64,000 bases of DNA, taken from Thermoanaerobaculia bacterium. GTDB taxonomy: Bacteria; Acidobacteriota; Thermoanaerobaculia; UBA5066. A program made the translations under genes and the position numbers. The notes under the pieces were generated by a model, which was given only the letters and a program-made list of their open reading frames with translations, did not search any database and was not told the DNA's origin. The stretch is from contig CAWFJJ010000024.1 of NCBI GenBank assembly GCA_963816185.1, positions 192,001 to 256,000 of the forward strand. The letters run 5' to 3'. Position 1 is the first letter of the stretch; the number at the start of each line of letters is the position of its first letter. Below, in pieces: positions 51,661 to 56,531 of this stretch.

Positions 51661-52179
51661 ATGACGATGAAGATCCAGGCCATGCTCGACTGGTCCCCCG
51701 AGGAGAAGGCCGCCAAGGCGAAGGAGTGGGCGCAGTCCCTCTTCACGCTCCGCCTCCAGAAGGCAACGGGCCAGCTCGAGAACCCGATGAAGATCAAGGA
51801 GCTCCGCAAGGACATCGCCCGCCTGAAGACCGCGCAGCACATGAGCGCGGCCGAGGCGGCGGCCGCGGCCGCGGCCGCCGAGGCCCACGAAGCGGCGACG
51901 ATTTCGGAGGGGACCGAAGAGAAGATTTCTGCGAATGAAAAGAGCGCGGCGGGGACGGCGAAACCGAAACCCCACGCCGCCGCATCGGGCAAAGGCGCCA
52001 AGAAGCGCGCCGCGGCCCACAAGAAGAAGGCTGCTGCGACGACGGGCAAGAGGGCCGCCGGCGCCTCCGCAAAGGCACATGCACCTTCTAAGAAATCTTC
52101 TACTTCCGGCGCTCCCGGCAAGACGGCCGGCGCCCCGAAGGCCAAGTCCGCCGCCTCGAAGAAGAGCAAGAAGAAGTAG
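51661..52179 (+). CDS. rpmC: 50S ribosomal protein L29 with a ~110-aa Ala/Lys-rich C-terminal extension
   Basis: [29 protein letters not shown]; lies between rplP and rpsQ. Confidence 0.93.
51921..52100 (+). repeat. AT-rich miniature inverted-repeat element, copy B, in frame inside rpmC
   Basis: GAAGATTTCTGCGAATGAAAAGAGC...CACCTTCTAAGAAATCTTC; 12/14 terminal inverted match; 180 nt = 60 codons. Confidence 0.7.
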
Positions 52180-52195
52180 TTCGTAACAGGAAGCA

Positions 52196-52627
52196 GTGAG
52201 CACGCCCATGAGCAGCACCCCGAAATCCCAGCCGGAGACAGGCGCGGCATCCACGGCCGAACAGCCTCGTCGTAGCCGCAAGGTCGGGACCGTCGTCTCG
52301 AACAAGATGGAAAAGACCGTGGTCGTCGAGGTCTCGCGCCTCGTCAAGCACACTCGCTACGGCCGCTATCAGCGGAAGTCGGCGCGATTCCTGGCGGACG
52401 ACCGTGTCCTCAAGGCGCAGCCCGGCGACACCGTGCAGATCGAGGAGACCCGGCCCTTGTCGGCCCGTAAGCACTGGCGCGTGACGGCCATCGTGACGAA
52501 GGGCCGCGCCCTGGTCTCCGACACGGCCGAGGTGCCGGGCAGCGAGGCGAAGAGCCCGGCGAAGAGCGTTCCCGAGAGGAAGCTGCACGCGAAGGGCGCG
52601 TCCGAGCCGGCGGGGAGGGCGTCGTGA
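52196..52627 (+). CDS. rpsQ: 30S ribosomal protein S17 with N- and C-terminal extensions
   Basis: [27 protein letters not shown]. Confidence 0.95.
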
Positions 52628-52998
52628 TCCAGATGGGGACGATCCTCGAAGTCGCCGACAACTCCGGCGCCCGCCGGCTGGCGTGCATCAAGGTCCAGGG
52701 CGGCTCGACGGGCGATTTCGGCCGGATCGGCGACGTCATCACCTGCTCGGTGAAGGAGTCGAACCCGGACGCGCCCGACCCGGTCAAGAAGGGCAAGGTC
52801 GTCAGGGCCGTCATCGTGCGCACGGTGCGCGAGCAGCGGCGGCGCGACGGCAGCTACATCCGGTTCGACACGAACGCGGCGGTCCTCGTCAACAATGAAA
52901 GGGAGCCGATCGGGACCCGCGTGTTCGGGCCGGTCGCGCGCGAGCTGCGCGAGAAGAAGTTCATGAAGATCATCTCGCTCGCTCCGGAAGTCATCTGA
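52624..52998 (+). CDS. rplN: 50S ribosomal protein L14
   Basis: [28 protein letters not shown]. Confidence 0.98.
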
Positions 52999-53000
52999 CC

Positions 53001-53366
53001 ATGAAGAAAAAGCAGCCGACGTACACCGGGAAGCGCCGGATCCGCAAGGACGACGTCGTCGTCGTCCTCACGGGGAAGGACCGTGGGGCGCGCGGGAAGG
53101 TCCTCAAGGTGCTGCCCGAGAAGGGCCGCGCCGTCGTGGAGGGCGTGAACAAGATCAAGCGGGCCACGCGCGCGAATCCCCAGAAGAACATCAAGGGCGG
53201 CATCCTCGAGCGCGAGGCGCCGATCGCCCTGTCGAACCTCATGCTCGTCGACCCCGAGGGCGGCAAGCCGACGCGGGTGGGAATTCGACCCGAGGGCGGC
53301 GAGTGGGTGCGCTACGCCAAGAAGAGCGGCGCGACGATCGGCACGATCCGGCCGGCGGGCGAGTGA
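53001..53366 (+). CDS. rplX: 50S ribosomal protein L24
   Basis: [23 protein letters not shown]. Confidence 0.97.
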
Positions 53367-53373
53367 GGACGAA

Positions 53374-53919
53374 ATGAGCAGCCCACGTCTCCAGGACAAG
53401 TACAAGAAGGACGTCATCCCGGTCCTCAAGAAGGAGTTCGGGATCGAGAACCTGATGGCCGTCCCGAAGCTGGAAAAGATCGTGCTCAACATGGGGATCG
53501 GCGAGGCCATCACGAACGCGAAGCTCGTCGACGCGGCCGCCGAGGAGCTCACGAAGATCGCCGGCCAGCGTGCCGTCGTCACGCGGGCGAAGAAGTCCAT
53601 CGCCACGTTCAAGCTGCGCGCGGGGATGCCGATCGGCTGCCGCGTGACGTTGCGCGGCGAGCGGATGTACGAGTTTCTCGACCGCCTCATGAACGTCGCG
53701 CTTCCGCGCGTGCGCGACTTCCGCGGCGTTCCGACGCGCTCGTTCGACGGACGCGGCAATTTCACGCTCGGCGTCAAGGACCATCTCATCTTTCCCGAAA
53801 TCGACCCCACGAAGATCGACAAGTCCAAGGGTCTCAACGTCACCATCGTCACAACGGCAGGCTCGGACGACCGGGCCCGGGTTCTCTTGAAAGAGCTCGG
53901 CATGCCGTTCGGCCGATAG
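53374..53919 (+). CDS. rplE: 50S ribosomal protein L5
   Basis: [27 protein letters not shown]. Confidence 0.98.
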
Positions 53920-53936
53920 CAGGGCAAGGAGCAGGC

Positions 53937-54122
53937 ATGGCTCGTCGCGCCGCCATCATCAAGGCGAACTCGAAACTGAAATACGCCATCCGCAAGCGAA
54001 ACCGCTGCATGCGCTGCGGCCGTCCGCGGGCGTTCATGCGGAAGTTCGGCTTGTGCCGCATCTGCTTCCGGAACCTCGCGCTCGCGGGCTACGTGCCCGG
54101 GGTGACGAAGGCGTCGTGGTGA
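53937..54122 (+). CDS. rpsN: 30S ribosomal protein S14, zinc-binding type
   Basis: [18 protein letters not shown]...KASW. Confidence 0.97.
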
Positions 54123-54132
54123 GGAGGGGGCG

Positions 54133-54531
54133 ATGAACATCAGCGATCCCGTCTCCGATCTCCTCGCACGCCTCAGGAACGCGTTGTCGGCCCGGCACGA
54201 GAAGGCCGACATTCCGTCGTCGCGCTTCAAGGTCGAGCTCGCCCGGATCCTCAAGGACGAGGGCTACATCAAGAATTTCAAGGTGATGGACGACCGGGGC
54301 GGCAGCCTGCTCCGCCTGTACCTCAAGTACGACGACACGGGGAATCCCGTCATTCACGGCCTCGCGCGCTCGAGCAAGCCGGGCCGGCGCCTCTACGCCG
54401 GCAAGAACGCGCTTCCCGAGGTTCTCGGCGGCCTCGGCGTCGCCATCGTGTCCACCTCGCAGGGCCTCCTCACCGGTCACGACGCGAAAAAGCGCGGCGT
54501 GGGCGGCGAGGTTGTCTGCACGGTGTGGTGA
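54133..54531 (+). CDS. rpsH: 30S ribosomal protein S8
   Basis: [29 protein letters not shown]. Confidence 0.98.
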
Positions 54532-54539
54532 GGAGCGAC

Positions 54540-55097
54540 ATGTCTCGAGTCGGTCAAAAGCCCATCTCCATTCCCAAGGGCGTCGACGTCCAGGTCGCGG
54601 ATCTTTCCGTCACGGTGAAGGGTCCGAAGGGCGCCGTCACAACGCCGATCCTCGCGGGCATCACGGTCGAGAAGAAAGACGGCATCGTCCGCCTCGCGCG
54701 CGCAGGCGAGGAGAAGAAGGACAAGGCGCTCCACGGCCTGAACCGCGCTCTTCTCCAGAACGCGGTCCTCGGCGTCACCCAGGGGTTCAAGCGCGAGATC
54801 GACCTCGTGGGCATCGGCTTCAAGGCCGAGGTCAAGGGACAGGCCGTCGTGTTCAGCGTCGGTTTCTCGCACGTCGTGAGGTTCCCGATGCCCGAGGGCA
54901 TCAAGGTCGAGGTCGCGCCGGACGCGAAGGCCAAGGACATCACGCACATCATCGTCACGGGCGTCGACAAGCAGAAAGTCGGCCAGACGGCGACCGAGAT
55001 CCGCGGGATTCGTCCGCCCGACCCGTACAAGCTGAAGGGATTCCGCTTCGTCGGCGAGGTCCTCAAGAAGAAGGCCGGCAAGGCCACGGGCAAGTAA
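54540..55097 (+). CDS. rplF: 50S ribosomal protein L6
   Basis: [24 protein letters not shown]. Confidence 0.97.
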
Positions 55098-55111
55098 GGA
55101 AGCAGGCAACC

Positions 55112-55480
55112 ATGGAAAAGGCACAAGCCCGGGTCGAAGCGAGGACGCGCATCCACACGCGCATCCGCACGAAGGTGAAGGGAACGGCCGCGCGGCCGCG
55201 CCTCGCCGTCTCCAAGACCCTCCGCTGGATCTCCGTGCAGCTCATCGACGATTCCGCAGGCACGACGCTCGCGCACGCGACGTCCCGCGAGACTCTCGTG
55301 CGCGGCGAGGCGAAGAGCGCGGCCAACAAGACGGCCGCCGTCAAGGTCGGTGCGCTCATCGCCGAGCGTGCCCAGGCAAAGGGCATCTCGGCCGTCGTGT
55401 TCGACCGCGGAGGCCATCTCTACCACGGCAACGTGAAAGCGCTCGCGGAAGCCGCTCGCGAGAAGGGGTTGAAGTTTTGA
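55112..55480 (+). CDS. rplR: 50S ribosomal protein L18
   Basis: [31 protein letters not shown]. Confidence 0.97.
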
Positions 55481-56136
55481 GCAGCAACGCGCCGACCAAT
55501 CGTCCCCCGCGCCCGAACCGTCCGGGCGGCAACCGTCCCGGCGGCCCGCCGCCTCGTCCGGCCGGCGCCCTCGGTGAGGGCCGCGCCGGAGCCGACCTCA
55601 TCGACCACGTCGTGCACATCAACCGCGTGACGAAGGTCGTCAAGGGCGGCAAGAACTTCTCGTTCTCGGCCCTCGTCGTCGTGGGCGACGGGCACGGCCG
55701 CGTCGGCTACGGCGCCGGCAAGGCGAAGGAAGTCCCGATGGCCATCAAGAAGGGGATCGAGATGGCCAAGAAGAAGATGATCAGCGTCCCGCTGAAGGGC
55801 AAGACGATCCCGCACCCCATCGTCGGCCACTACGGCGCGGGCCGCGTCATGCTCAAGCCGGCGTCCGAGGGCACGGGCGTCATCGCGGGCGGAGCCGTCC
55901 GCGCCGTGCTCGAGTCGGCGGGCGTCCAGAACATCCTCACGAAGTCGCTCGGCACGACGAACCCGCACAACGTCGTCAAGGCCACGTTCGACGCGCTCCA
56001 GCACCTGCAGCTCGAGGCGACGATCGCGAAGGCCCGCGGCGTGGGCAACGGCGAAGCGAAGGCGGAGGCGGTCCCGGCAGCACCGGTCGCGCCTGCGCCG
56101 GTTGCGGTTCCGGAGACCACGGAGAAGATCGGATGA
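55477..56136 (+). CDS. rpsE: 30S ribosomal protein S5 with terminal extensions
   Basis: [23 protein letters not shown] start overlapping the rplR stop. Confidence 0.96.
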
Positions 56137-56531
56137 GCGAGACGGACAAGACCGAGAAGATCGAGACCGAGAAGAAGAGGATTTCTTCGAAGGTGAATGC
56201 CCCGGCGCAGGCCGCTGCGGCGGAGCCGCGCGGCGCAGCCGAAGCGGGCGAGCAGGCAGCGCGCGCGCTTTCTAAGAATTCTTCCCCGGCCGCGTCAGCG
56301 GCCGTGCCGAAACCCCCGGCCGCCGCGAAGGCGGCGGCTCCGAAGCAGATCCGTATTCGCCAGATCAAGTCGGGCATCTGCGCGCCCGTCGATCAGAAGC
56401 AGACGCTCCTCGGGCTCGGCCTCCAGCGCATCCGGCACGAGGTCCTTCGCCCCGACACCCCGACGGTCCGGGGCCAGGTCCACAAAGTCCGCCACCTCGT
56501 CGAAATCGTCGAGGGTGGCGCGGCGAGGTAA
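56133..56531 (+). CDS. rpmD: 50S ribosomal protein L30 with a ~70-aa N-terminal extension
   Basis: C-terminal [10 protein letters not shown]...TLLGLGL.RI...[15 protein letters not shown]; no alternative start codon near the core domain. Confidence 0.9.
56177..56284 (+). repeat. AT-rich miniature inverted-repeat element, copy C, in frame inside rpmD
   Basis: GAGGATTTCTTCGAAGGTGAAT...TTTCTAAGAATTCTTC; 108 nt = 36 codons. Confidence 0.7.

Follow-up and report, generated by a model that had tools for sequence, protein, structure and literature searches.

Paired copies of a genus-specific AT-rich word lie in frame within the genes for ribosomal proteins L29 and L30 of a Thermoanaerobaculia bacterium

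The palindromic elements of Rickettsia (RPEs) are about 150 bp long, and nearly half of them lie inside open reading frames (ORFs), where they sit in frame within unrelated protein genes and are translated with the host protein (PMC10969869, in excerpt). The uptake sequences of Pasteurellaceae (uptake signal sequences, USS) and of Neisseriaceae (DNA uptake sequences, DUS) have 34.5-65% of their copies in genes and accumulate at poorly conserved residues (PMC2817400, in excerpt). REPINs consist of two inverted copies of a repetitive extragenic palindromic (REP) sequence with a spacer between them, form units of about 100 nt and show long persistence (PMC3337134, in excerpt), and intragenic invertons, in which inverted repeats inside genes flank arbitrary sequence, have been described in other bacteria (bioRxiv 10.1101/2023.03.11.532203, in excerpt). 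Here we analyze a 64,000-nt stretch (the window; C24:192001-256000) of a 5.09-Mb, 67% G+C assembly (G000) whose closest named relatives are metagenome-assembled genomes labelled Thermoanaerobaculia, phylum Acidobacteriota. Within its S10-spc ribosomal protein cluster, rpmC and rpmD, encoding L29 and L30, each carry one inverted pair of AT-rich arms inside the reading frame. A first-pass annotation had read these arms as belonging to an RPE-like repeat element that contributes new sequence to ribosomal proteins.

The rpmC ORF (51661..52179, forward strand) encodes 172 amino acids, with a Pfam L29 domain at residues 12-60 followed by a Lys/Ala-rich C-terminal tail of ~110 residues. In this tail the left arm (51921..51936), which shows the word in reverse orientation, follows a purine-rich leader, GAAGAGAAG. 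It is read AAG ATT TCT GCG AAT (K-I-S-A-N), with 3 of 16 mismatches to the word and 6 of 24 to the longer consensus. The right arm (52085..52100) is the forward word without mismatch (0 of 16) and is read CCT TCT AAG AAA TCT TCT (P-S-K-K-S-S). Between the two arms lies ordinary GC-rich coding sequence of the tail (51937..52084). The rpmD ORF (56133..56531, forward strand) encodes 132 amino acids, with a Pfam L30 domain at residues 73-123 preceded by an N-terminal extension of 72 residues. This extension holds a left arm (56177..56192; AGG ATT TCT TCG AAG GTG AAT, R-I-S-S-K-V-N; 2 of 16 mismatches to the word, 7 of 24 to the consensus) and a right arm (56269..56284; CTT TCT AAG AAT TCT TCC, L-S-K-N-S-S; 2 of 16 mismatches). 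The pairs take the form AGATTTCTT[A/C]GAAGG ... CCTTCTAAGAAATCT and span 180 nt in rpmC and 108 nt in rpmD; both are in frame and in the same motif frame, with the TAA of TCTAAG out of frame. Read this way, a canonical left arm would give ATT TCT TAG, which includes a stop, and both ribosomal copies carry stop-free variants (GCG in L29, TCG in L30). The positions, lengths, shared frame and peptides reported by the first-pass annotation are thereby confirmed.

A clustering of AT-rich codons at the arms was also reported there. In a genome with 0.87 G+C at third codon positions, the arm codons are rare choices for their amino acids: 0.088 for ATT, 0.057 for TCT, 0.087 for CCT, 0.137 for AAA, 0.130 for AAT and 0.091 for CTT, that is, 6-14% of each codon family in a table built from our own set of long ORFs. 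Chance resemblance of the arms is ruled out by shuffling: the 16-nt word matches six times in the window against 0.18 expected, a number that none of 100 shuffles reached, and its 8-mer core, TTCTAAGA, occurs four times against 0.28 expected. The peptide pattern [KR]IS[SA].{10,70}[PL]SK[KRN], proposed earlier as a proteome probe, gave seven matches in 4334 predicted proteins, compared with none in the same proteins reversed and an average of 0.1 over 20 shuffles; the arm peptides are the only ones to recur.

The ribosomal copies belong to a repeat found throughout the genome. TTCTAAGAA and its complement TTCTTAGAA occur 172 and 165 times, respectively, against 1.8 expected for each; they are equally common, and after homopolymers they are the most over-represented 9-mers. 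The genome holds 366 cores, one per 14 kb, whose consensus is CCCTCTTCACCTTCTAAGAAATCT with a pyrimidine-rich tract on the outer side; conservation has no sharp edge and declines gradually into purine-rich and pyrimidine-rich flanks. Most cores are paired. A partner on the inward side (at most 3 of 13 mismatches, at 25-320 nt) exists for 242 of 363 cores, while the outward side gives 19 and a far control 28 out of the same number; strict sites within 300 nt of one another form 29 reverse...forward pairs against three forward...reverse pairs. Arms of ~24 nt thus face inward, as terminal inverted repeats do. What the arms enclose is unrelated from copy to copy: an all-against-all BLAST of 127 interiors at E ≤ 1e-3 gave matches only among 16 that come from one kinase-like paralog family. 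About half of the cores (191 of 366, 52%) lie inside called genes, 90 on the sense and 101 on the antisense strand. Real stop codons are supplied by the motif's TAA or TAG at only 8 and 10 of the 366 cores, and the genes next to intergenic pairs are convergent, divergent or tandem without preference.

Three further observations concern the word itself and its genic copies. The kinase-like paralogs (~850-925 amino acids; 16-17 loci in G000, e.g. C24:616378-616485) carry an arm-like pair of 108-110 nt, written in rare codons, at a fixed place (EFFEGEE ... SFEEI). This pair may have been inherited along with the gene family and may consist of true arms; we kept it in all counts, where it dominates the 110-nt length class. 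A ComEA-like protein (G000:C1:554596-555330) has an arm pair in the low-complexity linker between its two HHH_3 domains. Finally, the forward arm resembles the 3' end of the genome's own 16S rRNA plus the first spacer bases (C1:445521-445600; TCACC ... TTCTAAG..ATCT, with a 4-nt gap); in a comparison made after the fact, a score this high was reached by only 26 of 29822 random 40-mers lacking the motif core. A reading of the arms as promoters or terminators was rejected, as the spacing to any -35-like hexamer (read by eye) is unsuitable, half of the cores are genic and neighbor orientation shows no preference.

The word is restricted to one genus. An 11-mer taken from it occurs in all 26 genomes of the genus, in 22-212 copies each. 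In other genera of the family searched it is rare or not found, with 1-16 copies in seven of eight genomes of genus g17, 1-8 copies in three of 17 genomes of genus g9 and none in nine genomes from seven further genera. Nor was the word found in 12 genomes of two sister families (0 of 10 when the unpublished G019 and G024 are set aside). Among the literature titles searched on Thermoanaerobaculia or Acidobacteria with palindromic, uptake or miniature inverted-repeat sequences, none describes such a word.

Upon comparison of L29 orthologs within the genus, we found that every one has the arms. In the right arm, CCT is present in 11 of 11 orthologs, the following TCT in eight (TCC in the other three), and AAG, AAA and the next TCT in all 11, while the adjoining codons vary freely. 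Because these rare codons (6-14% of their families) are fixed, it is the DNA (or RNA) word that is maintained and not the peptide. Synonymous decay of the repeat beneath a conserved peptide, which the first-pass annotation had named as a sign against its reading, is thus not seen in the right arm (CCT, AAG, AAA and TCT in 11 of 11). The left arm is variable and drifts. Among the 13 putative pairs of a stem between the L29 arms we counted no compensatory change and six pairs broken by changes in the left arm alone. This lack of covariation, with a right arm that stays fixed while the left one drifts, tells against selection for a stem at this locus and in favor of a word that is recognized as such. 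Further out, the relative L058 has a Lys/Ala-rich L29 tail without arms, and L057 has both arms.

Two conserved enzymes point to how the arms arise. An acyltransferase gene (C1:690562-691587) carries two arm pairs, the first two arms lying on either side of its conserved FPEG catalytic motif. Aligned with word-free orthologs from genera g14-g16, three of the four arms fall in columns of equal length, where motif codons have taken the place of GC-rich ones (CTT CTA AGA AAA ATC, for example, that of CTC CTC CGC CGC CTC); the fourth arm is a six-codon insertion, and the first is still missing in one member of the genus, G057. The hisS protein aligns from residue 4 to 408 with positions 2-405 of the 406-position TIGR00442 equivalog profile. 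Its left arm, present in eight of eight genomes of the genus and three of three of g17, replaces the outgroup codons TAC CTC GCC TCG CAC GAG; its right arm occurs only in G000 and, partly, in G014. Neither hisS arm changes the length relative to outgroups, so that five of the six arms in the two enzymes replace outgroup codons without a change in length. Judged from these alignments, the arms appear to be written in place, and because they leave the length unchanged, the interior appears to be host sequence.

In the arm region, hisS of G000 (C24:414360-415619) and of G014 is nearer to a g17 genome (G041) than to six other members of the genus, which share a different allele with a three-codon insertion. 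This hints at an exchange of hisS alleles within the family. The 3' end of tuf and the types of tuf-rpsJ spacer are likewise incongruent with the tree.

Both extensions are very probably translated, to judge from the comparison of related genomes. Eleven of 13 L29 orthologs of the genus are full length (153-171 amino acids) and end in KSKKK-stop; those of G006 and G008 end early, in G006 at the motif's own TAA. Outside the arms, the L29 tail has 26 columns with an identical residue in 11 of 11 orthologs, and 21 of these use at least two synonymous codons, a mark of selection on the protein; a conserved block of 11 letters in the interior also shows synonymous changes. The codon log-odds favor the annotated frame: they are 21.0 in the L29 tail, where the other two frames score -57.4 and -9.7, and 14.9 in the L30 extension, where those frames score -33.4 and -5.8. 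In an AlphaFold2 model of L29 (14-row alignment), the per-residue confidence (pLDDT) is 83-94 in the domain and 41-50 in the tail, which lacks secondary structure and is therefore predicted to be disordered. For L30, the rpmD ATG overlaps the S5 stop codon (ATGA) and lies 3' of GGAGAAGATCGG (a GGAG context), and this start context is conserved in 15 genomes of the genus. In the eight genomes without arms the conserved ATG opens a leader of 11-26 residues; in all seven with arms, extensions of 99-300 nt join it to the domain in one frame that contains no stop. In G006 the left L30 arm is read in a different frame, and a 1-nt difference in the right arm restores the original one, which suggests that the extension peptide is under weak constraint. 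RNA contigs of two runs from one study (X15 and X16) join 56155 to 56313 with 19 other letters in between. We rejected RNA excision as their origin, since this joint is the arm-less L30 form, present as DNA in G017, and so reflects a strain difference. The four sequencing runs consulted consist of contigs, mostly from relatives at 90-99% likeness, and contigs drop rare variants. RNA depth is near zero over 52005-52607 and no listed RNA piece crosses the L29 tail of this genome, which is uninformative either way.

On balance, we think it probable that the arms in L29 and L30 are copies of a genus-specific, paired nucleic-acid signal that is written codon by codon and kept where the protein tolerates it. 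The signal would be the ~24-nt AT-rich word (CCCTCTTCACCTTCTAAGAAATCT plus its pyrimidine-rich outer flank), normally an inward-facing inverted pair with arms 60-250 nt apart. Rather than a cut-and-paste element, it would be a signal with no body of its own: arms would enter by replacing codons or adding a few, and the sequence between them would be that of the host. They would persist at tolerant places, such as the disordered C-terminal tail of L29 and the N-terminal extension of L30, and would be translated there as K/R-I-S-[SA] and [PL]-S-K-[KN]-S. The repeat most likely contributes only 5-7 codons per arm to the two proteins, the rest of each extension being, on this model, ordinary low-complexity sequence that expands and contracts in frame. 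As to the agent, we tentatively suggest a DNA-handling protein with sequence specificity that works on a pair of inverted sites, these being perhaps spread and kept by recombination-linked drive or by selection, in the way that uptake sequences build up in genes.

More speculatively, the word might represent an undescribed genome-wide signal: a paired, oriented ~24-nt word of one Thermoanaerobaculia genus, actively written into intergenic and coding DNA by directional codon replacement and recognized at two sites by a machine for uptake, recombination or chromosome organization. The L29 copy would be among the oldest sites, because it is also present in the more distant relative L057, and the word may derive from or mimic the 3' end of the cell's 16S rRNA. 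If this were true, a force acting on DNA words would fix runs of rare codons in essential genes (those for ribosomal proteins, hisS and a lipid acyltransferase) and would also shape the disordered tails of ribosomal proteins across a whole genus. It would extend molecular drive of the uptake-sequence kind to Acidobacteriota and to a paired, oriented signal, and it would explain the odd Ser/Lys peptides in the ribosomal protein tails of this lineage. In practical terms, the word marks the genus in metagenomes and is a source of annotation traps, namely stop codons inside arms, frameshifts and read-through ORFs.

Like USS and DUS, as far as these are described in the excerpt consulted, the word is short and lineage-specific, occurs in hundreds of copies with both orientations equally common, has about half of its copies in genes and conserved orthologous sites, and accumulates by codon choice at poorly conserved or tolerant residues (here five of six enzyme arms, and rare codons fixed in L29). 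Genes for ComEC, ComEA and DprA are present in G000; they also match in 10-11 of 14 control genomes and prove little. USS and DUS are denser, the word described here being about ten times less dense. The single word, moreover, is not the unit in this genome: about two thirds of the cores stand in inward-facing pairs 60-250 nt apart, within genes as well, and uptake sequences are not known to form such pairs.

A number of observations weigh against a signal written in place, and many of them are features of a non-autonomous palindromic mobile element, RPE-like or resembling a miniature inverted-repeat transposable element (MITE), that was inserted whole into rpmC and rpmD and whose body now codes for new peptide. 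The dominance of inward-facing pairs (242 against 19 of 363) itself resembles a small mobile element, with ~24-nt arms placed like the terminal inverted repeats of MITEs; the commonest total length among 119 elements is 91-95 nt (19 elements); and 175 of the 366 cores fall in the 13% of the genome called intergenic, by a simple caller of our own (87% coding) that, like the codon table, was made for this analysis. Filled and empty sites exist as well. As the first-pass annotation had anticipated, relatives lacking the segment were found for L30, where it is present in seven genomes of the genus and absent in eight, always in frame. The two states are interleaved on a tree built from 1.5 kb of downstream DNA, requiring at least four losses or at least five gains (its rooting depends in part on the unpublished G019). 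The tuf-rpsJ spacer, compared in 18 genomes of the genus, measures 15-28 nt in eight, 146-172 nt with both arms in four and 106-107 nt with one arm in six; these types do not follow the tree, and the arm-bearing block differs between genomes. At C1:680500, a 93-nt element of G000 is missing in all four relatives compared, with an outer-flank remnant in G003. Writing in place, in turn, was shown in two genes only, the acyltransferase and hisS, and not in L29 or L30 themselves, and one acyltransferase arm is an insertion. We nevertheless consider insertion of a whole element improbable. Interiors of different loci are dissimilar, one paralogous gene family excepted, and five of six arms in two conserved enzymes flank conserved catalytic sequence without altering its length. 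An RPE family, by contrast, encodes a conserved peptide over its whole length and stands as an insertion relative to orthologs, whereas here only two arms of 5-7 codons are common to the copies. Downstream of rplQ, relatives have both arms, one arm, the hairpin alone or nothing, so that arms are lost singly and the hairpin is left. No target-site duplication is evident at the two filled/empty junctions read (tuf-rpsJ and C1:680500), and one distant L29 tail is free of arms. A MITE would have a transposase-encoding parent with the same ends; among the listed arm pairs 300-4000 nt apart, the ORFs at two of four fetched loci are not transposase-like (judged by eye, with no library scan). REPINs, going by the excerpt cited above, are similarly lineage-specific, with inverted copies, a spacer and units of ~100 nt. 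REPs are, however, extragenic and dependent on RAYT, a Y1 transposase (PF01797), while here 52% of the cores are genic, the arms are AT-rich and not hairpins themselves, and PF01797 has no match in G000 and matches in only two of 18 genomes of the genus (and in six of 14 control genomes). Of the earlier claim, then, the in-frame and apparently translated copies of a genome-wide repeat stand; a Rickettsia-type element with a body of its own is not supported, given the unrelated interiors, the lack of a detected parent or RAYT and the enzyme arms that leave length unchanged.

The remaining explanations are that the arms act in RNA, that they serve DNA inversion or that the extensions are not made. 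A purine-rich 5' arm and a pyrimidine-rich 3' arm could form a long-range stem in the polycistronic ribosomal mRNA, serving processing, decay or translation control. The arms do pair in the minimum-energy fold of both regions, and the L29 region folds better than shuffles (z = -2.3); whichever strand is transcribed, the purine arm comes before the pyrimidine arm, in keeping with the strong orientation bias, the window copies after rpoC, between tuf and rpsJ and after rplQ lie at or near operon joints, and the forward arm has the likeness to the 16S 3' end mentioned above. The lack of covariation in L29 (0 of 13 compensatory, the right arm being fixed) makes such a stem a poor candidate, as do an L30 region that folds no better than shuffles (z = 0.10), genic arms without sense-strand bias (90 against 101) and an Rfam scan of the window at gathering scores that returned five tRNAs only and no family matching the arms; ribosomes, moreover, would open a stem inside a translated ORF. 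Inversion of the segment by a site-specific recombinase, which would recode the protein inside genes, strikes us as highly unlikely. Inverted repeats of one consensus do flank unrelated segments at many loci, genes included, as in the intragenic invertons of the excerpted preprint, and the L29 segment is open on the opposite strand, too (minus-strand ORF 51610-52353). Open antisense frames are, however, common in GC-rich DNA, and no inverted form was seen at any locus compared: the asymmetric interior 3' of rplQ has the same orientation in all eight genomes with both arms, the tuf-rpsJ interior in four of four and the L29 tail in all orthologs, and no strand-changing joint is listed in the four sequencing runs (contigs only, with rare variants dropped). 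We give equally little credence to the possibility that the extensions are not made, with an L30 start beyond the arms, such as GTG 56305, or an L29 tail that is an annotation artefact. In-frame GTG codons at 56192 and 56305, the frame switch in G006 and the early L29 ends in G006 and G008 would all fit it. Against it stand the conserved ATG in its GGAG context with the ATGA overlap, which is the sole start for the short leader in the eight arm-less genomes, and the frame that stays open in all seven genomes with arms. No Shine-Dalgarno-like sequence lies 5' of GTG 56305, and both the L29 tail, with its conserved KSKKK-stop and synonymous variation, and the codon log-odds argue for the annotated frames.

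The window contains three more copies of the word, all between or behind genes. One lies 3' of rpoC (26358..26454), with arms at 26358-26381 and 26431-26454. Another (46500..46587) lies in the 146-nt spacer between tuf and rpsJ, with a degenerate left arm from ~46500 and a right arm at 46564-46587. The third lies 3' of rplQ (63370..63467), where the left (63370-63385) and right (63444-63467) arms flank a terminator-like hairpin.

This last copy coincides with an unusual gene model. At 309 amino acids, the rplQ (L17) ORF (62703-63632) crosses both arms, again in the same motif frame (RISSNG ... SPSKR), and continues into a response-regulator gene, to which it is antisense. L17 stops ~75-85 residues earlier in 18 relatives (G006 itself being frameshifted), and G000 has one extra C near 63330, with the usual ...PRKVGGG-stop present in the +1 frame. 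The long ORF of G000 reflects a frameshift or an assembly error. A second anomaly lies at 49528-50559, where S19 and L22 form one ORF of 343 amino acids (Pfam S19 at residues 3-83, L22 at 128-204) and S19 lacks its stop. A Pro/Ala-rich tail in the +1 frame reaches a TGA that precedes the L22 ATG by 11 nt, with the shift in a short tandem-repeat stretch at ~49800-49860; the fusion probably stems from an indel, either genuine or introduced during assembly. Only positions 1-76 of the 104-position profile are covered by the L22 match, and the hairpin region looks longer than usual. At the level of the assembly, the 9-mer TTTTTTTTT was counted 1023 times against 60 for AAAAAAAAA, which points to one or a few long T runs. 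Lastly, the genes between rpoC and the rpsL region, among them ORFs with repeated CxxCH-like units, are enclosed by a 36-nt inverted repeat with 86% complementarity (26510-26545 and 39822-39857, 13.3 kb apart). This repeat may delimit a block that was inserted or can invert.

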